Assembly (NCBI GenBank): GCA_965248535.1
Contig: CBDFJR010000005.1
Location: 896,001-960,000 of the forward strand
Reading direction: 5' to 3'
DNA: 64,000 bases
Source of the DNA: Phormidesmis sp.
Lineage (GTDB): Bacteria; Cyanobacteriota; Cyanobacteriia; Leptolyngbyales; Leptolyngbyaceae
Shown here in pieces: positions 3,906 to 48,655 of this stretch. Both the position numbers and the translations under genes were made by a program. The first letter of the stretch is position 1. Every line of letters starts with the position of its first letter. The notes below the pieces were generated by a model. The model was not told where the DNA came from. It saw nothing but the letters and a program-made list of their open reading frames with translations, and ran no database searches.

Positions 3906-5105
3906 TCAACGAAGGGCGGTAGCCCGGCTAGCACAGACGGGACACCGAGCATTAGTGGCTGCTGCTGCTCGACGGGGACTGGGCGGTGCAGTGCGCTGAC
4001 GTAGAACGGCATTTCGCACGATCGCTTGCTGCACGAGTTGCGGGTTACTCAACACTCGACGACTGGCCGATGCCATGGCTTTGACGGCCAGCGCGCCGTT
4101 GATCGGTTGACCTGCTTTAGAAGCCGCTTTGAGAGTTGCAACCGTGCGCCGTTGAATCGTGGGCACCGTTCGCAGCAGTTGCCGCCCGACGGGGCCTTGC
4201 TGGCGTAGCGTCTTCACGAGTTGACTGTTGGCTTGAGCCAAAATCGGCATCACCGGACGCAAGGCCCGCCGTCCGCCCATGATCGAAATTGTGATCGGTA
4301 AGGCTGCACCTAGCGTCGTTTCTGACTCAGCTTCGGTGGCGGCTTCTGCCGATTGCGCGGCTAGAAACTCTGTCAGGGCTGCTTCTTGAGCCGATTCAGT
4401 CTGACCCACTTCGGCTTCAGCTTCGTTGGTGCCAAAAAATTCTGCTTCCATCTGTCCGGCTTCCATTTCGCCTTCTTGCACGAGCGCGCTGGTGAGTTTG
4501 GCGGCTAGGGGTCCCGCGATCGGGCCAATGCCTGGAATCAAAGCAGCCAGTTTGCCCGCCACGATCGGAGCAAATCGCTTGGCCAAGGGAGCCGCTAGTT
4601 TGGCAACTTTGCCAATGCCTCGTTTAACCGCCCGAAACGCTTTCTTAAAGAAATATTCTCCCTCGTCTTCAGGATTGGAGTATGGATTGGAGTAGGGATT
4701 AGAGTACGAATTGCTGTAATGAGCAGCTTCGTGGCTAGTTTCCCACTCATCCTCAAACTCAGGATTGGAGTATGGATTGGAGTAATGAGCGGCTTCGTGA
4801 TTAGTCTCCCACTCATCCTCAAACTCATGGCTGGCTTGGGGATTGGAGTAATGAGCAGCTTCGTGGCTAGTTTCCCACTCATCTTCAAACTCAGGATTAG
4901 AGTAGGGATTGGAGTAATGAGCGGCTTCGTGATTAGTCTCCCACTCATCCTCAAATTCAGGATTGGCTTGGGGATTGGAGTAATGGGCAGCTTCGTGATT
5001 TGTTTCCCATTCATCCTCAAACTCAGGGTTAGAGTAGGGATTGCTGTAGTGGGCGGCTTCGTGAGAAACCGGGGCCTCAAACATTGCTTGGTGTTGCGTT
5101 GCCAT
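3906..5105 (-). CDS. Acidic-repeat protein with cationic amphipathic segments
   Basis: ATG at 5105 with GGAGAG RBS; 22-aa repeats HEAAHYSNPYSNPEFEDEWET, then FFKKAFRAVKRGIGKVAKLAAPL. Confidence 0.8.
   Translation of the reverse strand: MATQHQAMFEAPVSHEAAHYSNPYSNPEFEDEWETNHEAAHYSNPQANPEFEDEWETNHEAAHYSNPYSNPEFEDEWETSHEAAHYSNPQASHEFEDEWETNHEAAHYSNPYSNPEFEDEWETSHEAAHYSNSYSNPYSNPYSNPEDEGEYFFKKAFRAVKRGIGKVAKLAAPLAKRFAPIVAGKLAALIPGIGPIAGPLAAKLTSALVQEGEMEAGQMEAEFFGTNEAEAEVGQTESAQEAALTEFLAAQSAEAATEAESETTLGAALPITISIMGGRRALRPVMPILAQANSQLVKTLRQQGPVGRQLLRTVPTIQRRTVATLKAASKAGQPINGALAVKAMASASRRVLSNPQLVQQAIVRNAVLRQRTAPPSPRRAAAATNARCPVCASRATALR
4668..5063 (-). repeat. 66-bp coding tandem repeat, 5 full and 1 partial units
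   Basis: gcrgcttcgtg recurs at 4723, 4789, 4855, 4921, 4987 and 5053. Confidence 0.95.
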
Positions 5106-34838: not shown

Positions 34839-34926
34839 ACATAACGACCCCGTTCACCCGCCGCTAGGAACCTTTTGGACTCACCGACTCACTTGATACG
34901 GTCGGTGTGCAACGGGATTGTCATTC
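34839..34926 (-). other. attC-like site A (one core degenerate, GTCATTC)
   Basis: ACATAAC..CCCGTTCACC..GGTGTGCAACGGG..GTCATTC; arms nearly identical to site E. Confidence 0.8.
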
Positions 34927-34933
34927 GATGCTT

Positions 34934-35236
34934 CTACTCAATTTTGGATTGTCTCCAGTGCTTCATCTCCTCATCAGTAAAGTGACTAACTAAATCCCGA
35001 TACATTTTTTCAATTGCATCTGCATTTAATCCTTCCTCTTCTGCCCAGACTCGACGCTGCCCTAACATTGCGTGAAAGCGTTCAGGTGCTTTAACGGTAG
35101 TTTCACTCGTCTTGAATTTAGAGGCAGCTTTGACATATGCGAAACGCTGACCAAGTAGAGCAACAACTTGACGATCTAACCGATCAATTTCGGCTCGAAT
35201 ATCCGCCATATTTCCACATTGATTAGGTGTCTTCAT
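34934..35236 (-). CDS. pchB: Isochorismate pyruvate-lyase / chorismate mutase type II (cassette gene)
   Basis: MKTPNQC..MADIRAEIDRLDR...AASKFK..APER. Confidence 0.8.
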   Translation of the reverse strand: MKTPNQCGNMADIRAEIDRLDRQVVALLGQRFAYVKAASKFKTSETTVKAPERFHAMLGQRRVWAEEEGLNADAIEKMYRDLVSHFTDEEMKHWRQSKIE

Positions 35237-35364
35237 AGTTTGCAAAGTTGAGTGATGAGGCTAGTTTTCAACTTGAATCGAGAGTTCACACAACACTGGA
35301 AAATTCACCTGTGTTTTGAAGACTACCCCAACCCGCAAACTTCGCCTTCATGAAGTTCGGGGCA

Positions 35365-35697
35365 TTATGATAAAGCAAGCAGCGATAAACTTTCATCTGC
35401 ATGAAATAATTTGATCGCTTCAAAACTCTGACGTATAAAATTCTCAACTTGCCATGTTGAACAGTTTCCCAAGCGAAGCCAAATAACTTTTGGTGGATTG
35501 CCAAATACTAAGCTCAAATCGTGCATATCCGCCTCTTTTGAGACAATCATCAAATCGTTGTCTTTTGCATAATTCCAAACGATTGGATCGATTGTTGCCT
35601 TCATTCCCACATCTCGAACCTGAAGCGAATTTAGGAAAAGATCGTCCAGACGGTTCGGTAACTTTGGCGACAAGTTTTCATCAAAAAGTAATCTTAT
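35365..35697 (-). pseudogene. DUF5615 PIN-like toxin with start codon mutated to ATA
   Basis: (I)RLLFDENLSP...GNPPKVIWLRLGN. Confidence 0.75.
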
Positions 35698-35924
35698 GCA
35701 GATAATGGAGGAATCATTAACCGACGCTCACGGGCAGCAGCATAAGCAATACAGGCTTTTAAGTCTTCCCGCGTCAGATCGGGAAAATCGTCAAGAATTT
35801 CTGCTTCAGTCATCTCGGAAGCTAGGTGCTAGAGTACCTCATAAACCGTAATTCTTAAACCACGTACACAAGGTTTCCCACCCCGTTTATCAGATTCAAT
35901 TGTGATAAAGTTTTGGTAGCTCAT
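35694..35924 (-). pseudogene. DUF433 antitoxin with premature TAG
   Basis: MSYQNFITIESDKRGGKPCVRGLRITVYEVL*HLASEMTEAEILDDFPDL; stop at 35829-31. Confidence 0.85.
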
Positions 35925-36084
35925 AGTTAAAATCACCTTCATTAAATAGCTCTATTATAAGGCTTCGTCAGTCACAATCAGCACCAACAGAGGCTTTTTA
36001 GACTACTGCCCCAACCAACAGCCTGAGCCGCTGAACGTTCCGGTTGAGCGGTGACAAACCGAACTGGAACGAAGTGCAAAAGCT

Positions 36085-36622
<538 letters not shown>

Positions 36623-36640
36623 TTAGCAGTTAATTCTTCC

Positions 36641-36883
36641 TCAGTTAGCTTCAGGATAAGTTTCCTCTTTACGTATGACTTTAGCAAAACGTCCTGAAGT
36701 CCGCTCAAACAGAACGTCAAATTCACTATTTGGCATCCTCAAATCAATCGGAACTTCTTGAACAGGAAGTACTTCTTGACCGCCATCGTCCGCCAGTCCA
36801 ATACCAGCACAGAGAATTACCGTAATTTCTCCGTCTCGCAAACAGCCCAGAACTCTTGCTGGATAACGCCAGTATTTAGACAT
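36641..36883 (-). CDS. Hypothetical cassette protein
   Basis: 80-aa ORF starting just inside the cassette 5' core. Confidence 0.6.
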   Translation of the reverse strand: MSKYWRYPARVLGCLRDGEITVILCAGIGLADDGGQEVLPVQEVPIDLRMPNSEFDVLFERTSGRFAKVIRKEETYPEAN

Positions 36884-36954
36884 TTTCGGCAGCCCAAAAT
36901 ACTTGAAACTTACAAGCAGCTTCTAAACCACTAGCACAACCCGTAAACGAAGCA

Positions 36955-37739
36955 GGCTAACGCATTGTTGTGCGGCGGCAGATAAGCTTGGACTCTCACC
37001 GATAAGCTCTGTTCCGTCCGCACCAACGCATTGTGTACGCCCAGCATGGGTGTGAACTAATGGGGTGAAAGTCCCCTGTCGGAGAACCAACGTCCAAATG
37101 ATCCCAAAAGATCCGAGTGACGACAACGACTAGCTTAAGGTAAGGGCGTTTCCGCGAGGAAGGGTCTGAAGGAAGCCAGCGGCAAATCTGCGAGCTGACG
37201 GACAGAAACGTCATAGAAGGCTGAGATTCCTGTGGCAAGTGAGCACAACATCATGAAGCCTTTTGGTTCAGGGAACACAGTAAATGACGCAGTTGTGCAG
37301 AGACAGTTCACGTTCTTATCTGGGGAGATCTGCTCAAAGGGCGGTCTGAGGGTCTACGGGAGTCTGATTGAGGTCTAGCGGGAAACGGCTAGGGAGCCAC
37401 GGAACCCTAAGGACATTCAGGCAGCGTGAGTCATGGCAACAGGACTCATGATTGAGCAGAAGTCAGCAGAGGTCATAGTAGCCAAACACTCACCGTAATG
37501 GGTGAGACAGGGTGAAGGGCTGAACCTTAGAAAGCAGGGAGGAGTTGCAAAGCTCGACTGGGCGATGAACCCGAACGGGGGAGCTATTTTGTCGGCGCTT
37601 AACTGCACAACCAGCCCTGGATATTCAGTTCTATTGAACTGGCTTGTCTAAAACTTTTCTGGGGACGCGCCCCGTGCGGAGCCGCACGCGGGGTGCCGTG
37701 GGGACTGGGGGAGAAAATCCCCTGGTTACCCGATTGGGC
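36955..37739 (-). other. attC-like site D, split by the intron (36955-37034 plus 37735-37739)
   Basis: GGCTAAC..GTTGTGCGG..CCGCACCAAC..TTGT|TGGGC. Confidence 0.88.
37035..37734 (+). mobile_element. ORF-less group IIC-attC intron (700 nt)
   Basis: 5' GTACGCCCAGCATGGG; short IIC-type domain V GACGCGCCCCGTGCGGAGCCGCACGCGGGGTGCCGTGG; domain VI ending ACCCGAT; inserted at TTGT/T; no RT ORF. Confidence 0.88.
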
Positions 37740-37746
37740 TGCGCCG

Positions 37747-38130
37747 CTACATGACGCTGACTGGATAAGCACGGACTGCTGCATCTACCGTCGCAATGGT
37801 CAAGCCGTTTTGTAATGCTTGGCAGATTAGCATCCTGTCAAATGGATCACGATGTAATGGCGGCAGTTTAGCCAGTTGAAGCACACTATTTTCATTAAGG
37901 TCAAGACTGGCAATCTGATGAAGATTGCGCTGTTTGGGCAAATACGTTTCGGGATGCTCCGGCAAAGGTAGCTTGCCCAACTGATATTTGACAATCGCTT
38001 CCCAGACTGAAATTGCGCTTAGATAGACCTCGTTGTCTGGATCGCGAATGGCATCTCGAACATCTGGTAACAACTGGGTATCCCCACTGATGAACCACAA
38101 GAAGATATGTGTATCCAGCAGAATTCTCAT
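37747..38130 (-). CDS. VapC PIN-domain toxin
   Basis: LLDTHIFLW, SVWE and HRDPFDRMLICQA motifs. Confidence 0.92.
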   Translation of the reverse strand: MRILLDTHIFLWFISGDTQLLPDVRDAIRDPDNEVYLSAISVWEAIVKYQLGKLPLPEHPETYLPKQRNLHQIASLDLNENSVLQLAKLPPLHRDPFDRMLICQALQNGLTIATVDAAVRAYPVSVM

Positions 38131-38366
38131 TTGCCCTCAAATGCACGGAGAAGATCTTCCGGCAAAGGAGCATCGAAATTATCTGGCACGGTAAACGCTC
38201 CTGCACACAAACCGAATGGTCGCAGCTGCTTACCGCTTGATGAGATCGGTCTTAATTCGGCGATCGCTTTATCTGCTTGAACAATCACAATTGTTTGACC
38301 TGCCTCCACTTGGCGCAGATACTTTGAAGGATCGCGCTGAATTTCATCAACTGTCACACTTAGCAT
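38127..38366 (-). CDS. Phd/YefM-family antitoxin
   Basis: LRQVEAGQTIVI..AELRP..VPDNFDAPLP. Confidence 0.88.
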   Translation of the reverse strand: MLSVTVDEIQRDPSKYLRQVEAGQTIVIVQADKAIAELRPISSSGKQLRPFGLCAGAFTVPDNFDAPLPEDLLRAFEGK

Positions 38367-38374
38367 AAAAAGCC

Positions 38375-38854
38375 TCAGTATAAGCTCAAGGGATAATACT
38401 CTGCTTGATTCAATTGTATATGATGAGTCGTATGCTCCCAGCTAGGATGCGTCTTGAATCCCAACTTCTGATAAAACTCGGCGGCGGCTGGGGTATCGGT
38501 TCGCAACGTCAATAGTTGGTAATGCTGCTTGGCTACGTGAATAAGCTGAGTGACCAGCAAACGTCCCACTCCACGCTTCCGCCAAACTGCCTCAACATAC
38601 AAGTGTCGCAATCTACCAACTTTAGAATCATTCAAATATGGATCTTGATTCAGCCCACCGATTCCAACTATCGCACCGTGTACCGAAGCTGTAAGTAGGA
38701 TTTCACCAGACCGATCAAAGCAATTTAAACCACTACGGTACTCTCGAATCAGTCTTTCAACGAACCAAAACCCCTGGGATAAACTTTCCTCAGCGAGATG
38801 ATGAATTGATTTTGAGTCAAGCTCTGAAATGTGAGCGATCACAATCTGTTGCAT
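38375..38854 (-). CDS. GNAT-family N-acetyltransferase
   Basis: LYVEAVWRKRGVGRLL and FYQKLGF motifs. Confidence 0.9.
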   Translation of the reverse strand: MQQIVIAHISELDSKSIHHLAEESLSQGFWFVERLIREYRSGLNCFDRSGEILLTASVHGAIVGIGGLNQDPYLNDSKVGRLRHLYVEAVWRKRGVGRLLVTQLIHVAKQHYQLLTLRTDTPAAAEFYQKLGFKTHPSWEHTTHHIQLNQAEYYPLSLY

Positions 38855-38943
38855 GAGCCTTGAGAGAATATTGCAAGATTCGATCTTAGCTTTGAATCCC
38901 GACAAGTAAAACTGAAAGACAATCACAGCCAAAAATTCAAGCA

Positions 38944-39031
38944 GCCCAACGACCCCGTTCACCCACCGCTAGTAAACTATCGGATTTACCAACCAACTTC
39001 ATTCGGTCGGTGTGCAACGGGATTGTTATGC
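38944..39031 (-). other. attC-like site E
   Basis: GCCCAAC..CCCGTTCACC..GGTGTGCAACGGG..GTTATGC. Confidence 0.9.
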
Positions 39032-39037
39032 GGTACT

Positions 39038-40249
39038 TCATGTTGCTGATTTAATGTTATCTATTCCAGAATCGGGATGATGAAAGCCACTTGTATCTAA
39101 TGCTGGAATAAGAGTGTAGCCATTATCGTTAAGTATTCCCTTTGCACGTGAAGGCTGAATATATCCTTTGCCATTCATAAAAGTGAAACCATGACAGTTG
39201 TATTCTGGAGTAAGAAGTTCAACTTGCCGAGGTTTCATATTAGGAGGAAAGGTCATCTTTAGATAGGCTTCTGTTCTCTCTTTCTCACCAGGTTCAGCCC
39301 TAAGCCCACTTTTCTGAATAGCAGTTGACCACGCTACAGCATTACCATTTGTTTCATCAAGAGTCCCATCCTGCTTTACTGCGGCATCTGTAAAATAAGC
39401 ATCAACACAGATTATCGTCACACAATATCTCCCACTTCTCAATAGATTACTCCTACTACCATCTTTACGCTTTGCACGGTGTACAGTCCATGATTTTCCA
39501 TAGATACTGTAGTTTGGGTGATGAAGATATAGTCCTTGAGCGCCCCACTTACTCTTAATTTGAGCGACAGTGCCATCTGGATGAACGCCTGTGATGACAC
39601 CTGAGTGAGTAATCGTTCCATCACTTGCTCGATAAATTACAATATCTCCTTGCATCGGTAGAGATTTGTTTACTCTCGTCCAAGTAAAAGTGCCTTCGGT
39701 TACTATAGAACTAGTTGAGGGTTTACAGGAAATCTTGCCTTCTTTTATAGTATTTCCATCACTACTAATAGTCCCAGTATACGTATTAGTATATCCCCAG
39801 CCCACACTTGTTTCTCCAGCCGTTTCAGTAAACTCAACAGTATTATCAGAGTTAACTTTACCTGAGAAGAAATAAGTCAAACTGCCACCTGTCCAAACAA
39901 CCTTACGAGGAGAACTTTTAAGCTGACTACCATCCTGGGTGATCACTATTTCGGATGACTCCCTTCCAGTTTTACCACCAATAGAAGTCACCGAAGGACT
40001 ACCGGGATTACAGCGATCTCTAGTTACCGTAAATCCATCTCGATCGTTTATCCAAGTACCGGTCAAGTCTACATTGCGTGGCACAGACGCAATGTAGACT
40101 TCATCTTTAGGTAAGAAACTATAATAATTGGCTGAACTAAAGCCAAGAAGACCACAGAGGAAAACAGCGATCGTCTTTCGCCAAAAAGCTGTGCTGACAA
40201 CAAGCAGAGAAGTTAGGAGAAAAACTAAAATAAAGCGTAACTGTCGCAT
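39038..40249 (-). CDS. Exported cassette protein with putative Cys/His (papain-like) catalytic motifs
   Basis: Hydrophobic N-terminus, beta-rich domain, GDIVIY..THSG..SKWG, then YNCHGFTF. Confidence 0.55.
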   Translation of the reverse strand: MRQLRFILVFLLTSLLVVSTAFWRKTIAVFLCGLLGFSSANYYSFLPKDEVYIASVPRNVDLTGTWINDRDGFTVTRDRCNPGSPSVTSIGGKTGRESSEIVITQDGSQLKSSPRKVVWTGGSLTYFFSGKVNSDNTVEFTETAGETSVGWGYTNTYTGTISSDGNTIKEGKISCKPSTSSIVTEGTFTWTRVNKSLPMQGDIVIYRASDGTITHSGVITGVHPDGTVAQIKSKWGAQGLYLHHPNYSIYGKSWTVHRAKRKDGSRSNLLRSGRYCVTIICVDAYFTDAAVKQDGTLDETNGNAVAWSTAIQKSGLRAEPGEKERTEAYLKMTFPPNMKPRQVELLTPEYNCHGFTFMNGKGYIQPSRAKGILNDNGYTLIPALDTSGFHHPDSGIDNIKSAT

Positions 40250-40456
40250 GATTCAAGCCTATTGATAGAATGAGATGCCTTAGAAGCTGCTGAGATAAGA
40301 GTTATAAAATCAAGACTCAACCTCACTCTGCTGTATAGAACAGGAGATAAAATGAATCAGCTTATTAACATAAGCTCTGCAATTTAGGAAATGATTGCTC
40401 TCTAGGAGTAACTGAATCAAAGTAGAATTACTACCTTGGAAACCTTGTAATACCAA

Positions 40457-41005
40457 TCACCAGTCCTTCCTTGGAAACTCAAGATCATGTGTTGCATGGC
40501 TTGGATCTTTGTCTAGATATCTTTGTTGTTTTATTCGTAAGTCATTTTCCCTAGATGGCTCATCAGTCCTCAATTGACTATCCTCTCCACTTTTAGAGTT
40601 TCCCCCTCCCATGTTTCTAAGCATAAAAATCAAGCCTGAGGACAGGAAAGAGAACGGCTGCTTCAGAAAAGTTTTAACTATTGCTCCAAGAATATTAGCT
40701 GGAGATGGTTCAATGTTTTCATAAATTAGGCTTTGCCTTATGAAATAGACAACAAACACAATAGCAGCTAGTAGCCCAATCCAATGCCAATTAGCCCATG
40801 CCTGGATAATCAGAAAGATATAGAAAATCCAACGTGTTTTGTCGCTAAATGAGCTTAATACCCAGAGACCAATAACAAAAAATGCAGCGACAACATTACC
40901 GTGTGGAGCAAAGGCGTTATAAATTACGCTGTACACAACTAATGCGACAGCAGCGCCAATATGCAGGTTTCTTCGTATGATTTTCATGATTAGGTAGGTA
41001 AACAA
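40457..41005 (-). CDS. Hypothetical membrane protein (cassette)
   Basis: Several transmembrane-like segments; AT-rich DNA. Confidence 0.6.
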   Translation of the reverse strand: MFTYLIMKIIRRNLHIGAAVALVVYSVIYNAFAPHGNVVAAFFVIGLWVLSSFSDKTRWIFYIFLIIQAWANWHWIGLLAAIVFVVYFIRQSLIYENIEPSPANILGAIVKTFLKQPFSFLSSGLIFMLRNMGGGNSKSGEDSQLRTDEPSRENDLRIKQQRYLDKDPSHATHDLEFPRKDW

Positions 41006-41190
41006 ACGCTAGTTTGACTGGTATCAAGAAAAAATTATTCGGCTTGATTCTGATGTCACGGAACCGATAGCAGGTGTGTTCTTCAATACAAAGTTCCTCA
41101 ATTTTCATCTAGCTGTCTGAGCATCTATGAGATTGAGTTTGGGCAGCGACAGATAAGCATCAATAACTGCCCCCACCGATAACTTAAGAC

Positions 41191-41275
41191 GCATAACGGT
41201 TGCAATCACCGGACTCAGATATCTTCTGCTAGCACCAGTATGCTTCAAAGTTCCGGTGCATTGCGATGGTTAGCT
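41191..41275 (-). other. attC-like site F
   Basis: GCATAAC..GCAATCACCGGA..TCCGGTGCATTGC..GTTAGCT. Confidence 0.9.
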
Positions 41276-41282
41276 TTCGCTT

Positions 41283-42599
41283 TCACAGGTACGGTTTAAG
41301 CTGCTTAAATATTTCATTGGTTTCATATCCGGGTAGTTCATGAATACGGCTCTTTAATATCTCAGATTGGTACTTTGTTGGTGTTGTAAAGCTCCGATTG
41401 TAATTAGAAATCCATCTTTTTACTTCCATATCCACTCTTTGAACAAGTTCAGCTGAATTAGGCGAATTTATTAACCAGAGAAGAAACATTACTTGATCCC
41501 ATTTATCCCGAACTCTATTGAGAGAAAAAGCACATGATTTCATCACAGGATTAGAATCAACAGAACACAAATCTATTAACTCTGGTTCGCTCAATCTCAT
41601 TCTAGCTTGCCGCATTAACCTTGCTGACTCCTTAGCTACACCTGGAGAAGTATCTCGTATCCCAATAGTAAGATATTGTTCAGATTTCTCTCTGTCTAGT
41701 CTAACTAATGCTTGTAGGCTGGCTTTTCGCAGACAAGAGTATTCACTTTTTAGATACTCTGATATAGCACTTATTGCCGCAATACAATTAATTTCAGACA
41801 ACCCTAACAATGCACTTCTCAATTGTCTTAACTTACTTTGCTTCGCAGATAGCTTTTGCAAATACAGACTCTGAACATCAACACTTATTTCAACTAATTT
41901 CTTGACAGCAATTTCTCTGATCGAAGCGTGACGGTCAAATGCAAATAATTCAAGAAGATTTTTAGAAGTGTCTGAAAATCGATTCAAAGACAATAATAAG
42001 GTTGTACGTCGGACGGGCATAAATGGATCTTGAAGACCAAATTTCATGACTTCTTTCAGTTGATCATCCGCAAGCAAATTAAACAAATTAGCTATAGTAG
42101 AGCGAACTACAATGTCATGACTGCCTATGCAGTGGAGTACGATTTGGTATGGCTGCAACAGCTGATGATCGATGGTTAAGTGCAGGCAACAACGCGCCAC
42201 AAGGGGATTAGCACTTGTGCACCCATCTACAACTTTCGCTTTATTCTCTCCACTAAGTAGAAACGATTCAACGGCTGTGATTAGCTCGCTATGATCGTCT
42301 CTATAACAATTCTCAAGATGATAAATATTGGGCAGCGCATCGATAAACGCCAATGCGTTTTCTTCGATTAACAATTCTTTAAGTGCTGTATATGAAGCAG
42401 ATCTTACCTGTGGAACCCAATCATTTGCCCGTTTAATGAGTATAGGAAGTGTGATCGAAGTGCCAACCAGCCCCAATTGACGAACTGCCTTTTCTCGTTC
42501 ATAGCCGTTCCAACTATCTGCCAGTTTCAGAAGCTCATCGATACTCTTCTGCTTGTAGAACCATTGATGCCACTTTTTCAAAAGCCCTCCTCGACCCAC
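41283..42599 (-). CDS. HEAT-repeat protein (first cassette)
   Basis: NGYEREKAVRQL..RANDWVPQVR and further HEAT-like repeats. Confidence 0.75.
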   Translation of the reverse strand: MGRGGLLKKWHQWFYKQKSIDELLKLADSWNGYEREKAVRQLGLVGTSITLPILIKRANDWVPQVRSASYTALKELLIEENALAFIDALPNIYHLENCYRDDHSELITAVESFLLSGENKAKVVDGCTSANPLVARCCLHLTIDHQLLQPYQIVLHCIGSHDIVVRSTIANLFNLLADDQLKEVMKFGLQDPFMPVRRTTLLLSLNRFSDTSKNLLELFAFDRHASIREIAVKKLVEISVDVQSLYLQKLSAKQSKLRQLRSALLGLSEINCIAAISAISEYLKSEYSCLRKASLQALVRLDREKSEQYLTIGIRDTSPGVAKESARLMRQARMRLSEPELIDLCSVDSNPVMKSCAFSLNRVRDKWDQVMFLLWLINSPNSAELVQRVDMEVKRWISNYNRSFTTPTKYQSEILKSRIHELPGYETNEIFKQLKPYL

Positions 42600-42611
42600 T
42601 GATGTTGAGAA

Positions 42612-42773
42612 AGCTAACTACTATTTCTGCCGTTTGAACTCCTATCAAACAGGATAAATGCCTCTCTCAGGGAAATTATGCTGTATGCAAACCGGATAAC
42701 GCCCATTATTTTAGGAATTATACTGAATTTCCACAGGATAACTCTCCGATTTCGGGTAATTATACGGAATGGC
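42612..42773 (-). other. Candidate attI-like site with three 42-bp-periodic repeats
   Basis: Core AGCTAAC at 42612; GGATAA at 42652, 42694, 42736; ATTAT at 42675, 42717, 42759. Confidence 0.55.
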
Positions 42774-43193
42774 ACTCAGGTTTTTCGATTCTAAGGGAGC
42801 CAAAAGTAAATTGTCTCGTTCCGATGAATCAGTCATGGCGCTGAGTCGATCGAGTCCCTGCCGTTGCTCGACTGGAACATAAATTAGGGAGAAGTTACGA
42901 TCGCGTCCCTCTCCCTCAAAAAGTCAGCATTCCAAAAAACAAAAAACTCTTGTACAATACACCGCAGTGATGGAGTTGTGCCCCGGAAATCTGATCGGCT
43001 AAATCAGACTCCGAGGACTTCCATCCCTAGTTAGACCAATTAACTCAGGAGGCGTTCATGATTGTACACCGTCGGCTTTGCTATGGGATCTTGAAAGGCT
43101 GGAATCAAGATCCTGCATACAGTTTTCACCCCAACCAAATGTCTGAGAGATCCGTGTTTTTGTCCTCTTTAACTTAACTAAGAGGACAAAAAC

Positions 43194-43565
43194 ATGGGAG
43201 TTAGGACGATCGTGCCTAGCTCGATTTCGTTCACCGTTGAGTTGCGATGCTCAATCGAAAAGCGTTATCGAGTTAGCGTGGTTTTGGATTTACAAGAGCG
43301 TTATCTTTTTGTGCCGTCTGGCATTCTCGTGAATGTTGGCGATCGCATTGAAGAGTTCGTCTCAGAACTGAGTGAGATTGCGTCTAATCAACTGGCATTT
43401 CTGAAGTGGGATGACACCAGTGATTTGACCACAGAGTATCAAGTTGTTCGAGTGTTGCCTGGTTATCAGGTTGAACGTTCTTTAATGAAGTTCAACATTG
43501 TTCTGGGTAATGGTGCACTGATTCAAGTAGAGGAGTTGCACAACAAAACGACGATTCAACTGTAG
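43194..43565 (+). CDS. Hypothetical protein preceded by a structured leader
   Basis: 123-aa ORF, AGAGGA RBS, hairpin downstream at ~43573-43612. Confidence 0.6.
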   Translation: MGVRTIVPSSISFTVELRCSIEKRYRVSVVLDLQERYLFVPSGILVNVGDRIEEFVSELSEIASNQLAFLKWDDTSDLTTEYQVVRVLPGYQVERSLMKFNIVLGNGALIQVEELHNKTTIQL

Positions 43566-43745
43566 GACGGTGAGTTAGGGAGTCGTCAATATTTGAGAAA
43601 CGCTCCCTAACTTTAGACTTCTCGTTTGGTCATCATCAGATCGTGAAGTGACCTTAGCATCGCACGCTCTGAGCAGAAAATTTGATTCCTGACTTTTGGG
43701 GTGAATCCAGGTTTATACTGACAGGCATCGTGATCGGTTTGCCCT

Positions 43746-44447
43746 GTGAGTTCGACTTCAAACCCTAGATTAGCGCTTAAATGGAGCATCCAACCCCGGT
43801 TGCTGTTGTCTATCTTTTTGGCGGGGTTGGTTGCTGTCTTGCTGCCAGGCTGGTTTCATTGGGCAACTCGCCTACTGTGCATTTGGGACACGGGCATGAT
43901 TAGCTTTTTAGGCTTATCTTGGTGGCTGATGCTGAATGCCACCCCTGATTCGATGCGCCGTCATGCTCAACAAGAAGACGCTGGGCGTTTGATGATTCTC
44001 AGCTTGATTACGGCGGCGGCTTGTGCAAGTTTGTCGGCGATCGGGTTCATTTTGCACGACAAAGGGGTTAATAACCAACTGCTAGTTTTGCATCTGGCCC
44101 TATCAGTTACCACAATTGTGGGGTCTTGGCTGTTGGTGCATACCATTTTTGCTTCTCACTATGCCCACGCCTACTATAAAACCGGAAAATCGCTGAACGA
44201 ATGTAAAGAAGACGGCTTAGATTTTCCGGGAGATATTGAGCCAGACTATTGGGATTTTCTCTACTTCTCGTTTGTGATTGGGATGACGAGTCAAACGTCA
44301 GATGTAGAGGTGACCTCTCGCCAGATTCGACGGCTCTCACTGACAATCAACATTATGCATGGTGTGCTGTCGTTTTTCTTTAACACGACGATCGTGGCGA
44401 TGACCATCAATATCATATTGCGGAACCGTCTCATGGGTTTCTGTTAA
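43746..44447 (+). CDS. DUF1345 membrane protein
   Basis: FPG..EPDYWDFLYFSFVIGMTSQTSDV. Confidence 0.88.
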   Translation: MSSTSNPRLALKWSIQPRLLLSIFLAGLVAVLLPGWFHWATRLLCIWDTGMISFLGLSWWLMLNATPDSMRRHAQQEDAGRLMILSLITAAACASLSAIGFILHDKGVNNQLLVLHLALSVTTIVGSWLLVHTIFASHYAHAYYKTGKSLNECKEDGLDFPGDIEPDYWDFLYFSFVIGMTSQTSDVEVTSRQIRRLSLTINIMHGVLSFFFNTTIVAMTINIILRNRLMGFC

Positions 44448-45836
44448 TCTGGGAGCTTGCCCCCCGATCCGGTTCGCCTTGTAGGAGATCGGGGTTTTGT
44501 TCAGAATATAACGGGCAGGTAGGATGCTTTGGCTTTCATCTCTTGGGAAAGATGTGATGAATATCGAAGTCGGTTTCGGCAAGTTTGGGTGCTGACTAGC
44601 AGGGCAGCACTGTTACGTGGAAATGCCCGAACCTGCCCTTAACCCACTTGGCTGCCATGCGGGTTTCAACGGCTCCTCCATAAAGCTCTCCCAGAATGCC
44701 ACACCAAAACCAACGGGCAAGTTTGTCATAGATCTTGGGCTGAAGCCAGTCGTCGCCCAATAGAGCTAAAACGGCAGCAAGCGGCACAAGTTGAGTGCTA
44801 TAGGGCAGGTCGCGGGTTGAAAAGAAGGATTCTTTACGGAGAAACTTTGCGGCTTTCCAAAAGCCCTCAGTGAGCTTGGGTTGCCATTGCTGGTAGGCAG
44901 CTAAGGGTAGAGACAGAACTGCTTCACGCTTGGCGCTGACCCCTGTGACTTGCTTGCCTGTTTTGCCTAATAGAAGATCTGCTTGACGCTTTTCCCAAGT
45001 GTGCAGCAGAGACAGCGCTTGCAAAAATTCAGTCGGCTGCACCTGCCCTAATAGTCTCTGCTTTGAGAGTTTCCGGTGAATGCCTTCGATCTTCTCTTTT
45101 ACGTTGCCATACCACTCGTCTCGCATGTTGACGTTATCGGCAGCGTAGGTGGCTGTGACAATCAAATACAGAAAGAGCAACGCCTCCAGTATTGACCTTC
45201 TCGAAGACGAGACAGACGGCTTCCTTCTTGTTTTCCTTGCTGGTTCATGATGGGGACATTATATTGCGGAACTCATTGAGAACCACTGGAATTGCGCGTA
45301 CCGCCCAAACTTACATTGTAGGCAAGTAACCCTTCCTCCCAATCGTCAGAGTTGAGGATTTGATTGCAGGGGAAAAAGAAGTTCTCGTATTCTTTCTCTG
45401 AACTGAGATCGAGTTTAATATCGCGACCGAAGTTTTCTTTGATGACTCGATTTTCGTCTACGCCGATGATGGCGTTTTCATAATTCTCCTGTCCTTCTAA
45501 TGCCTCGATATCAATGTAGTAATAACGCTTGAGTGATTTTCCTGTACTATCTACAGGCTGCTTGAGCATCAGCACTTGAGTTGAGGCGTTGTCATCAAGA
45601 ATGAGTTGCTCTGTGTCTTCAGGTTTGATTTTGGTTGCATCTAGTCCTCGACGGGGCGCACTTTAAAATCGCCGCCTGCTTCTGATCATGACGGCTCCGA
45701 TCGGGAAGGCAAGCAATGCTCACTAACAGAGATTGAAAAGACCCATCCTCGCTGAAAGTCGGGCAGTTGGTTTGCCGGAGACAATATCACGGAGCAAATC
45801 AGCGAGGCGTTTTTTGGTGGAGTCGAAGTTAGACAT
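44420..45836 (-). pseudogene. Decayed GmrSD-type (DUF262 plus HNH/DUF1524) restriction gene
   Basis: Fragments QLPDFQRGWV, PYSTQLVPLAA, WCGILGELYGGAVETR, DIHHIFP and NKTPISYKANR across several frames. Confidence 0.8.
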
Positions 45837-45971
45837 ACTGCTTCTCTACTCTGGGTCTGGGTCATTTTAACAACAGATTGCTGTTCTACAGAGTGCCCAC
45901 AACTTTATGAAGTGTGACCTCAAACGCTGGTGTTGCTGGTTGATAGGTCTCGATCGTAGCTTGATTCTTCT

Positions 45972-46139
45972 AAACCAAAGGGCGTTTGCTGCAAACCAAC
46001 ATGCATTTGCTCCAAGCCAACATGTATTTGCTGCAAACCAACATGCATTTGCTCCAAGTCAACATGCATTTGCTGTAAATCAAGATGCGTTTGCTCCAAA
46101 CCAAGATGCATTTGCAGCAAGCCAACATGCATTTGCATA
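45972..46139. repeat. 21-bp tandem repeat, 8 units
   Basis: Consensus AAACCAACATGCATTTGCTSC. Confidence 0.92.
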
Positions 46140-46287
46140 AATCTCATCCGAAATGTTACCTAGGGTCTTCGTGTAGTCACTATTCATGACCCTTGAATGC
46201 CTCACCGGATCATGATCTGCCAAGGTTAGATTTTTTCTGATCTGTGAAGGGATTAATAAGGTCACCTGTTTTTTACTATCACCGTTT

Positions 46288-47007: not shown

Positions 47008-48655
47008 TTGCCTATCATGCTGCTAGCCGATCGCTTCCCCTGGCTGACCACGATTGTTTTGCTGCCGCTCATTGCTTCGCTGGTGATTCCCTTTCTGCCT
47101 GACAAAAATGGCAAGATCATCCGCTGGTATGCCCTTGGCGTAGGCTTTGCTGACTTTGCTCTGATGTGCTATGTCTTTTGGAAGCACTACGATGCCAGCA
47201 ATCCGGCGCTGCAACTCGTAGAACACTATGCCTGGATACCGCAGTTGGGGTTAAGCTGGGCGGTCTCAGTCGATGGGTTATCGCTGCCGTTTGTGCTGTT
47301 GGCAGGGTTTGTGACGACGCTCTCAATGTTTGGGGCTTGGCAGGTCGATCGCCGACCTAAACTTTTTTACTTCCTCATGTTGATGCTTTATGCCGCACAG
47401 GTTGGCGTGTTTGTCGCCCAAGATCTCGTGCTGCTGTTCATCATGTGGGAAGTCGAATTGATTCCGGTCTATCTATTAATCTGCATCTGGGGCGGGCAAA
47501 AGCGTCGCTATGCAGCCACTAAGTTTTTAATCTACACAGCCGCCGCTTCTATCTTTATTTTGGTCGCTGCTTTGGCAATGGCGCTCTATGGCGATCGGGT
47601 CACCTTTGATATGGTCGAGCTTGGTTTAAAAAACTATCCCCTAGGGTTAGAACTGTTCCTCTACGCAGGATTGTTGATTGCCTTCGGAGTCAAGCTTGCC
47701 GTGTTTCCCATGCACACCTGGCTTCCTGATGCCCACGGTGAAGCGTCGGCTCCCGTGTCGATGATTTTGGCTGGAGTCTTGCTCAAAATGGGAGGCTATG
47801 GCTTGATTCGTCTCAACATGGGGCTGCTGCCCGATGCCCATGTTTATTTTGCGCCGCTGCTGGCAATGTTGGGCGTGAGTCAATATTGTCTATGGGGCGT
47901 TTAACTCGTTTGCTCAATCTAATATGAAGCGCCGCCTAGCCTATTCGTCGATCTCTCACATGGGCTTTGTGCTGCTGGGCATTGCCTCTTTTACTGATTT
48001 GGGCATCAGCGGGGCGATGTTGCAGATGATTTCTCACGGGCTGATTGCCTCGGTGCTGTTCTTTTTAGCAGGGGTGACCTACGATCGCACCCACACCATG
48101 GCTATGGATGACATGGGCGGCATTGGTCAAGTTATGCCCAAAGTGTTTGCGCTGTTTACGGCAGCGTCAATGGCCTCACTAGCCCTACCGGGAATGAGCG
48201 GGTTTGCTAGTGAAATCTCAGTGTTTGTGGGTTTGACCACGAGTGACGCTTACAGTTCGCTGTTTCGCGCTGTGACTGTGTTTTTGGCGGCGATCGGGGT
48301 CATTCTTACGCCAATTTATCTGCTCTCAATGCTGCGCCAAGTCTTCTATGATTCAGGGGCTGCCCCCGACTGCGATGTGACCAGTGAAGGCTTAAAAGCG
48401 TTAGAAAATCAGGGAGCCGTTTGTTTTGGCACCAACTGCGTTTTGCCTGCCGATGCCGATTTTAGCGATGCTAGACCTCGTGAAGTGTTTATTGCAGGCT
48501 GCTTTTTGGTGCTGATCATCGGCTTTGGGTTCTATCCTAAGTTGGCGACTCAACTCTATGACGCGAAAACAGTCGCGATCACGGCTCAAGCTCGTCAATC
48601 TTATGTTCAAATCGCTCAAACAACCCAGCGATCGTCGTTTAGTCCACAATCCTAA
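47008..48655 (+). CDS. ndhD: NAD(P)H-quinone oxidoreductase subunit 4 (NdhD1/D2 type) with an apparent +1 frameshift at ~47878
   Basis: [19 protein letters not shown] and [13 protein letters not shown]; removing one A restores [16 protein letters not shown]. Confidence 0.9.

Follow-up and report, generated by a model that had tools for sequence, protein, structure and literature searches.

Phased palindromic units at the attI site of a cyanobacterial integron form a putative accessory array for integrase binding

Three 34-bp palindromic units in exact 42-bp register stand at the head of an array of gene cassettes in a 64,000-nucleotide stretch of the genome of Phormidesmis sp. (the window). 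We propose that these units make up the accessory region of an attI belonging to a sedentary chromosomal integron, with their half-sites as putative integrase-binding elements, and we estimate the probability of this reading, which was reached by sequence comparison, at about 60%. The assignment of the site itself as an attI is secure, because its position, its junction, its polarity, its linkage to intI and its lineage-wide conservation all agree. Binding of the integrase to the units is proposed because the half-sites are similar to the R boxes found in attC sites of the same genome, because the integrase is the sole protein common to all array-bearing loci, and because attI1 offers a precedent, its accessory repeats (DR1 and DR2) being bound by IntI1 and favouring recombination of attI with attC, as described in sections of PMC8946536.

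The repeat units and the cassette junction

Direct reading of the window revealed the pattern C-N-GGATAA, 18 bases, TTAT-N-C-N-G on the plus strand, with units starting at 42650, 42692 and 42734. Unit 1 (42650..42683) is an imperfect 34-bp palindrome made up of CAGGATAA, 18 bases and TTATGCTG; unit 2 (42692..42725) contains CCGGATAA, 18 bases and TTATACTG, and unit 3 (42734..42767) contains CAGGATAA, 18 bases and TTATACGG. Spacing is exactly 42 bp both among the left half-sites (42650, 42692 and 42734) and among the right half-sites (42676, 42718 and 42760). All three units were defined from sequence and pattern statistics, together with the conservation profile for unit 1 and a scan with a matrix of R' boxes for unit 3. 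The composite pattern CNGGATAA-N18-TTATNCNG matched three times in the 64-kb window, always within the array, against a chance expectation of 0.01, and none of 100 dinucleotide-preserving shuffles gave three matches. GGATAA alone showed no enrichment in the window (27 matches, 25.4 expected), and the signal therefore lies in the arrangement of the half-sites. Tandem Repeats Finder, when run on the window, did not call the array, because the units are alike at their ends only and their interiors differ. With a period of exactly four turns, all left half-sites lie on the same side of the helix, and the right half-sites, which are 26 bp (∼2.5 turns) off, on the opposite side. Such phasing suggests a scaffold rather than a series of independent operators. 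The three 42-bp-spaced units with their six half-sites, and the absence of a plus-strand attC after AGCTAAC, were all present as the original prediction had described them.

The crossover-proximal block of the site, TAACTACTATTTCTGCCGTTTGAACTCCTATCAAA (42615..42649, plus strand), is its best-conserved part over 26 copies, and holds an imperfect palindrome in which 42630–42637 pairs with 42645–42652. A 53-aa ORF on the minus strand (42614–42775) coincides with the array. An origin of the repeats in coding sequence was nevertheless rejected, because single-base indels separate the copies (alignment columns 52, 57, 80 and 142), conservation falls in blocks and is not codon-like, and the ORF has no Pfam match. 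An Rfam scan of 42400–43800 returned two sub-threshold miRNA matches, attributed to chance, and no family. DnaA boxes, CsrA-type GGA hairpins, type III toxin-antitoxin repeats and iterons were set aside; the integron context accounts for the array.

The sequence AGCTAAC lies at 42612–42618 and is not followed by an attC on the plus strand. Read on the minus strand, it is the attI/cassette junction core GTTAGCT (42612..42618), recognised from the loss of homology in nine copies and from complementarity to the R'' box of the first attC. We place the crossover between G42618 and T42617, so that positions up to and including 42617 would belong to cassette 1. The minus-strand edge of the array reads AGTAG|TTAGCTTT, preceded in its longer form as ...AAATAGTAG|TTAGCTTT. 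The junction GTTAGCTTT (42618–42610, minus strand) is the reverse complement of the R'' box AAAGCTAAC of the first attC at 9 of 9 positions, and the second cassette follows the same rule of complementarity (GTTATGC and GCATAAC). Taking agreement at six or more of seven bases as the threshold, this rule held at six of nine arrays; at the other three the R'' box of the first attC is replaced by an inserted element.

Cassette 1 (41192..42617, minus strand) consists of a HEAT-repeat gene at 41283–42599 (Pfam HEAT_2, E 1.4e-13) and an 80-bp attC at 41271–41192, which reads AGCTAAC...GCAATGCACCGGA...TCCGGTGATTGC...GTTATGC on the minus strand. An iterated nhmmer search seeded with this attC identified 43 attC-like sites in the genome, and their alignment showed the canonical R''-L''...L'-R' order over about 80 bp. 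Five of the sites belong to the window; each is on the minus strand, and none is on the platform side of the junction. Four of these nhmmer matches (39027–38948, 37033–36972, 36111–36034 and 34921–34840) belong to the further cassettes at 34840..41191 on the minus strand, whose genes were assigned by Pfam to GNAT, PIN, BrnT, DUF5615 and chorismate mutase, and are typical cassette cargo. The attI position claimed for the repeats is thus corroborated by the junction at 42617|42618, its complementarity to R'' and five attC sites on the cassette strand. Genome-wide, 28 of the 43 attC-like sites fall within 15 kb of the nine arrays and of two junctions next to intact intI genes. All 28 are on the TAAC side and on the strand reading away, with none on the other side or strand; five of the other 15 adjoin other copies of the 123-aa gene module described below. 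On the right flank of the platform, where an attC body would be a sign of insertion into an existing array, none was found at any array.

Two features of the cassettes themselves deserve mention. An ORF-less group II intron at about 37040–37750 (plus strand) lies antisense in the attC at 37033–36972 and replaces its R'' box; Rfam matches were obtained at 37148–37314, 37425–37520 and 37665–37734 (RF02001, 127.8 bits; RF01998, 63.7; RF00029, 43.5). The replaced attC end ATGCTGGGCGTACAC is found at seven of the 43 attC-like sites, and a one-base variant of it at an eighth. Group II introns antisense to cassettes are a known habit of attC sites, and the window intron presumably resembles the attC-targeting group IIC introns of other integrons. 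First cassettes at G000:C2:1675295, C2:2140385 and C2:1132935 are homologous to one another (83–86% identity over 220–350 nt) and contain no obvious long ORF; they stand at two window-type arrays and at the attI of one intact integron.

A dispersed platform and its deleted integrase gene

When 16–20 bases were allowed between the half-sites, the relaxed pattern matched 21 times in the 5.03-Mb genome, all within nine loci that are copies of one element. This confinement of the unit pattern to platforms argues against a global regulator. BLAST of window positions 40000–46000 against the genome showed the array to be the outer ∼165 bp of a ∼1-kb repeat (about 42613–43611), hereafter the platform, present as seven full copies including that of the window, one copy split by ∼1.26 kb and one array-only copy. 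Ten more copies of the repeat begin near 42897–42947 and do not have the window-type array. Alignment of the left ends placed the boundary at TAAC|TACTATTTC: nine of nine copies stop matching just left of TAAC, and the sequences outside are unrelated. A contig from the run of another organism, spanning 42615–42981, diverges exactly at 42615. Alignment of the right ends placed the other boundary at a hairpin, GTTAGGGAG, 20 bases, CTCCCTAAC (43574..43611, plus strand), where homology among the copies stops at ...CTAAC. In three copies (C2:1677546-1677657, C5:798xxx and C2:1670xxx) the loop of this hairpin is enlarged by ∼70 nt, and the loop may itself be a target of insertion or recombination. 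The split copy (G000:C2:1675657-1676916) is interrupted at the position of the promoter of the 123-aa gene.

Because it forms one end of a 1-kb element that is dispersed in the genome and sharply bounded, the array might be thought to represent subterminal repeats of a transposon or MITE that bind a transposase, as at the ends of Tn7 or Mu. We consider this highly improbable: the two ends of the platform are unrelated in sequence and form no terminal inverted repeats, no ORF of the platform or of loci L002–L018 contains a transposase domain and none is encoded in or beside any copy, every copy abuts a cassette array bearing attC sites, and the recombinase gene of the complete form is that of an integron integrase. 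An IS200/IS605-type element, prompted by the subterminal hairpins and by TAAC at both ends, was likewise dropped after intI and attC had been found, because the 123-aa protein has no HUH motif, as judged by eye, and no Pfam match.

The complete form was recognised at locus L004 (G004:C1009), where a homologous array occupies −207 to −43 of an intact intI that begins 43 bp past unit 3 on the same strand as the array. Its 319-aa ORF is an integron integrase (TIGR02249, 439.9 bits). Window positions 42615–42880 align with 1–264 of L004, covering the array, the spacer and 57 nt from the start of intI; the remaining ∼930 bp of intI (L004 265–1195) are absent from the window, and homology returns at window position 42929, equivalent to L004 1196. 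The intI remnant of the window (42824..42880, plus strand), defined by this alignment, runs for 57 nt from the ATG and has an in-frame stop at codon 7. Adjacency to intI is thus a property of the homologous L004 site, and the window copy retains 57 nt only. One deletion end is common to all seven full platform copies. These alignments indicate that the window platform is an integron platform from which intI has been deleted. In the complete form, a cassette array would meet the platform at a G|TTA core, followed by ∼35 bp of highly conserved sequence, the three phased 34-bp palindromic units, 43 bp, intI on the same strand and, in this genus, the 123-aa gene; the window would be a derivative that lost all but the first 57 nt of intI, and the deleted platform would then have been copied to nine genomic places, each heading its own cassette array. 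The original prediction of a distinct stand-alone attI-like platform is consequently right as to its attI-like nature, but not as to a separate stand-alone kind, as the element is an ordinary platform with intI deleted, 57 nt left and nine copies.

The array had also been predicted to lie away from the integrase gene, in agreement with our finding that the window contains no integrase gene and that the only two intI matches in the genome are both on contig C2 (466 and 467.6 bits; TIGR02249 cut-off 265). One of them is directly followed by a copy of the 123-aa module. Both intact integrases stand behind another attI sequence type, and no intact integrase of the L004 type occurs in the genome of the window. 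The two intact integrons have in common a 190-bp crossover-proximal block (L030 1560–1745 and L029 3450–3270, minus strand) built of several GTT...AAC palindromes, for example GTTCCCAATGGGTAAC, and this block is a second attI type, distinct from that of the window.

The platform copies that lack intI may still be served by an integrase in trans. In favour of such capture, the seven full copies share one deletion, yet are followed by different first cassettes with correct junctions; a family of related first cassettes (83–86% identical) occurs at two such arrays and at the attI of an intact integron; and the genome encodes two intact integrases. However, these resident integrases belong to the other attI and are 55–57% identical to that of L004, which argues against present-day activity, attI being generally recognised by its cognate integrase only, as stated in parts of PMC8946536 and PMC2095811. 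The junction rule would be produced equally by insertion of the platform itself beside a cassette. The hairpin at its far end starts with GTTAGGG on the cassette strand, and movement of the whole platform driven by the integrase is therefore possible. A more far-reaching proposal combines these elements: the 34-bp palindromes at 40–42 bp would be an undescribed, lineage-wide attI architecture of cyanobacteria and a scaffold that serves intI-less platforms in trans, and the platform in its entirety, from attI through intI (where present) and the 123-aa gene to the end hairpin, would move as a giant cassette by recombination between the attI core and GTTAGGGAG, seeding new arrays. We regard this combination as doubtful; if true, it would provide a concrete origin for integrase-less attC clusters (CALIN).

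Downstream of the intI remnant, the platform contains a module (42929–43611) of promoter, leader, 123-aa gene and end hairpin, of which the genome has 17 copies including that of the window. A promoter-like sequence, TTCCAA, 17 bases, TACAAT (42930..42958, plus strand), was found by eye, the promoter scanner being silent, and the 17 copies share sequence from about this point. The conserved leader of ∼230 nt (42965..43193, plus strand) includes a 39-codon ORF (43058–43177) behind AGGAGG and a hairpin (43152–43197) over the start codon of the 123-aa gene; it is almost invariant among the 17 copies, its stems being conserved and its loops variable. The gene itself (ORF123, 43194..43565, plus strand) also lies downstream of intI in L029, L076, L078 and L097. 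Its product had no match in Pfam, NCBIfam or PADLOC. An AlphaFold model was confident (pLDDT 88.8) and gave no fold match, with a best Foldseek E of 0.067 and a best VIA Z of 4.8, and the best protein-atlas score of 0.77 is under the usable level. Relatives formed 13 clusters among 1.84 billion representatives, and the named ones are all from Phormidesmis. Contigs of an ice metatranscriptome cover the 123-aa module and a small segment of a related array, the contigs alone not being evidence of transcription or of start sites.

The conservation of this gene beside the array bears on whether the units could instead be operators for a dimeric regulator other than the integrase, either a host factor or the 123-aa product, that controls the intI and cassette promoters and has no role in recombination. 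Palindromes of 34 bp in fixed phasing between two divergent directions of transcription would suit such a regulator, the 123-aa gene remains with the array in this genus even after the deletion of intI, and intI is known to be under LexA-type control in other integrons, as noted in part of PMC3108266. However, the 123-aa gene follows intI in this genus alone, and is therefore not a general partner of the arrays: 28 of 32 intI loci lack it within 1.5 kb, and the same architecture stands upstream of intI at such loci. The motif was not found elsewhere in the genome, and the 123-aa model has no recognisable DNA-binding fold by the Foldseek and VIA scores given above. We therefore judge an operator array unlikely, and favour the integrase as the ligand of the units.

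Conservation, folding and promoters at the half-sites

Over 26 diverged copies, conservation was highest in the TAACTA.TATTTCTGCCGTTTG block and in the half-sites GGATAA and TTAT.C.G, and the interiors of the units varied. Among the seven intI-less copies, mean pairwise difference was 0.025 in the crossover-proximal block and 0.063 in the half-sites, as against 0.150 in the unit interiors and 0.119 in the spacers that separate the units. Divergence is likewise low in the intI remnant (0.052 over the same copies), so that low divergence alone is not proof of function and the comparison is suggestive.

We then compared the half-sites with the R boxes of attC. A matrix was derived from the 43 attC sites, using their R' boxes, and both strands of 42560–42900 were scanned with it; the six half-sites took ranks 1, 2, 4, 7, 8 and 10, with the junction core at rank 3. 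The best match in this region was the left half-site of unit 2, read on the minus strand as CGTTATCCGG. Scores were weak for four of the six half-sites (genome-wide tail 3e-3 to 9e-3), and most half-sites start with ATTAT, not GTTAT. Units of other arrays, for example that of L029, read GATAT rather than GTTAT, and the likeness to R boxes is therefore not universal.

Since integron integrases recognise folded attC strands, we considered whether the units fold as hairpins in single-stranded DNA or RNA, either as stem-loops resembling small attC sites or as a structured leader of intI. In a three-hairpin model, 72.7% of cells were paired, compared with 24–47% when the partner was slid. The 26 copies gave no sign of covariation in this model, however, as the observed values of all five measures were reached by 456–500 of 500 shuffles, and several pairs were mismatched at fixed positions in 18, 19, 20, 25 and 26 of the 26 copies. 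No Rfam family was matched, and the small palindrome beside the crossover gave no clear signal of the covariation type. Folded units are weakly refuted by this test and in our view very unlikely; the conserved mismatches suggest that the units behave as paired, non-identical, sequence-specific half-sites in duplex DNA, and not as selected stems.

A contribution of promoters has also to be weighed. The HEAT gene starts 16–19 nt past the junction, and a promoter is therefore needed inside the platform. Four promoter-like consensus matches were found in 42500–43700, all on the minus strand facing the cassettes (1.6 ± 1.2 expected), and one uses a perfect TATAAT that is the reverse complement of a unit-3 half-site. 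As TATAAT occurs within the half-sites on the cassette strand, promoter function could account for some of their conservation. The TTAT boxes might then be mainly tandem −10 elements of stacked, phased outward promoters (Pc) for the first cassettes. As the principal explanation this is improbable, since it leaves unexplained the inverted and equally conserved GGATAA half-sites and the inner CC...GG symmetry, and relatives read TATAAC or GATAAT at the same positions. It is compatible with integrase binding and does not exclude it, and promoter control is likely to be a second role of the units, or an alternative one.

In the mechanism that we favour, each half-site (GGATAAC or (A/G)TTATNC) would be an integrase-binding element, and six such half-sites, in register every four turns, would load integrase beside the crossover point. 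The loaded integrase might aid attI x attC synapsis, control transcription from the intI promoter and from the outward promoter of the cassettes, or both, as DR1 and DR2 do in attI1.

Occurrence in cyanobacteria and comparison with known sites

The array recurred at 68–81% identity in 6 of 40 related genomes, comprising five of the seven other members of the genus and one member of another genus. A conserved 19-mer of the site retrieved 26 loci from public genomes. The array is present at all 10 cyanobacterial loci among them and absent from the remaining 16, which are chance matches. At five of these 10 loci attC was found on the expected side and strand, and three weak attC matches (E 6e-5 to 1.2e-4) fell on the other side. 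The association of the motif with cassette arrays, which had been put forward as a check of the prediction, was therefore seen at nine of nine arrays in the genome and at half of the cyanobacterial public loci.

Integron integrases were detected in 53 of 81 genomes of the family at E <= 1e-40, and in 46 of 81 above the TIGR02249 cut-off. We computed autocorrelation over 300 bp (−330 to −30) upstream of intI at 27 loci, five loci being too short upstream. The best lag within the range 25–69 was 39–42 bp at 24 of the 27 loci, and at 14 of those 24 no more than one of 300 mononucleotide shuffles reached the observed value; inside intI, a best lag of 39–42 was seen at one of 27 loci. Family loci have three to six units of the form C(T/G)GNATAAC.CCC, loop, GGG.GTTATNC(A/C)G. 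Variants of this form precede the intact intI of L029 and that of the genus relative G002:C58. Beyond the family, intI was rarer, being present in 15 of 201 genomes of a phylum sample, the window's genome counted. Units were seen by eye at four loci of other families (L098, L099, L101 and L112); the best lag was 39–41 at 8 of 15 loci, and a strong 40-bp signal outside the family was obtained only at L112.

One relative deserves separate description. At L097 (G002:C58:1-10000), a complete integron lies ∼5 kb upstream of an orthologue of the DUF1345 gene of the window (43746–44447); its parts are an attC, a junction ...GCTAAC|, 42-bp units (three to four, and of a different sequence type), an intact intI and a copy of the 123-aa module. 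Presence of an integron near the DUF1345 gene may therefore be an ancestral state of the genus.

The DR repeats of attI1 fit within a site of ∼65 bp. The window-type site resembles attI1 in that it adjoins the 5' end of intI in the complete form (L004), has its crossover at the G|TT of a GTTRRRY-like core and, as attI1 is described in sections of PMC8946536, has additional core-like repeats beyond the crossover, towards the integrase. In contrast to the two direct repeats of attI1, there are three palindromic 34-bp units here (three to six in relatives), with six half-sites and a period of 40–42 bp over 120–250 bp, and intI, which shares the strand of the array, is directed away from the cassettes and is followed, in this genus, by the conserved 123-aa gene. 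Like attIA of Vibrio cholerae, this attI belongs to a sedentary chromosomal integron whose long cassette array includes toxin-antitoxin cassettes; unlike the large repeat array of the cyanobacterial sites, attIA is described in part of PMC8946536 as having no repeated accessory sequences and depending on host factors. An attI with accessory sites is as such already known. What appears to be new is the occurrence of palindromic 34-bp units at 40–42 bp, three to six per site, across a cyanobacterial family, as do the multiplied intI-less platform that still heads cassette arrays and the conserved 123-aa neighbour gene. A search of the main text of articles found no description of these three features, or of any attI repeats in cyanobacterial integrons.

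Outside integrons, loxP and FRT are core sites of 34 bp with a 13-8-13 arrangement. The units equal them in length, but their AAC...GTT ends face inward and are 16–18 bp apart, compared with an overlap region of 6–8 bp. The arms of the lambda att site and the ends of Tn7 and Mu place several phased recombinase-binding sites beside the crossover, as the units would, with the difference that arm sites are bound by different proteins or domains. Should integrase bind the units, theirs would be the largest accessory array known at an attI, and a good system in which to probe the roles of accessory sites in synapsis, as a topological filter and in promoter control.

According to sections of Cury et al. 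(2016; PMC4889954), no recognisable intI pseudogene lies near 95% of CALIN, and the attI of most integrons is unknown. Integron-finding software therefore has no means of searching for attI in most integrons that fall outside the clinical classes (PMC4889954, in part). Here attI can be read directly, because nine copies share the site and each abuts a different cassette, and the phased palindromic units provide a searchable attI signature for cyanobacterial integrons. The window locus is like a CALIN in that its cassette array has no nearby integrase and IntI is encoded elsewhere in the genome, but differs in retaining attI and a 57-nt intI remnant, so that its origin by loss of intI is directly legible. 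The genome also illustrates a route to integrase-less clusters, by a single deletion in intI and subsequent spread of the deleted platform.

Elsewhere in the window we noted two tandem repeats that are unrelated to the array. One (4696–5064) has a period of 66/132 bp, 5.6 copies and a score of 486–579; the other (45985–46136) has a period of 21/42 bp and 7.2 copies, and overlaps small ORFs at 45907–46147. In addition, two adjacent ORFs on the same strand (47008–47904 and 47924–48655) read like two halves of one polytopic membrane protein. By eye, the split pair looks like NADH dehydrogenase subunit 4, and it may represent a frameshifted gene or a sequencing error.
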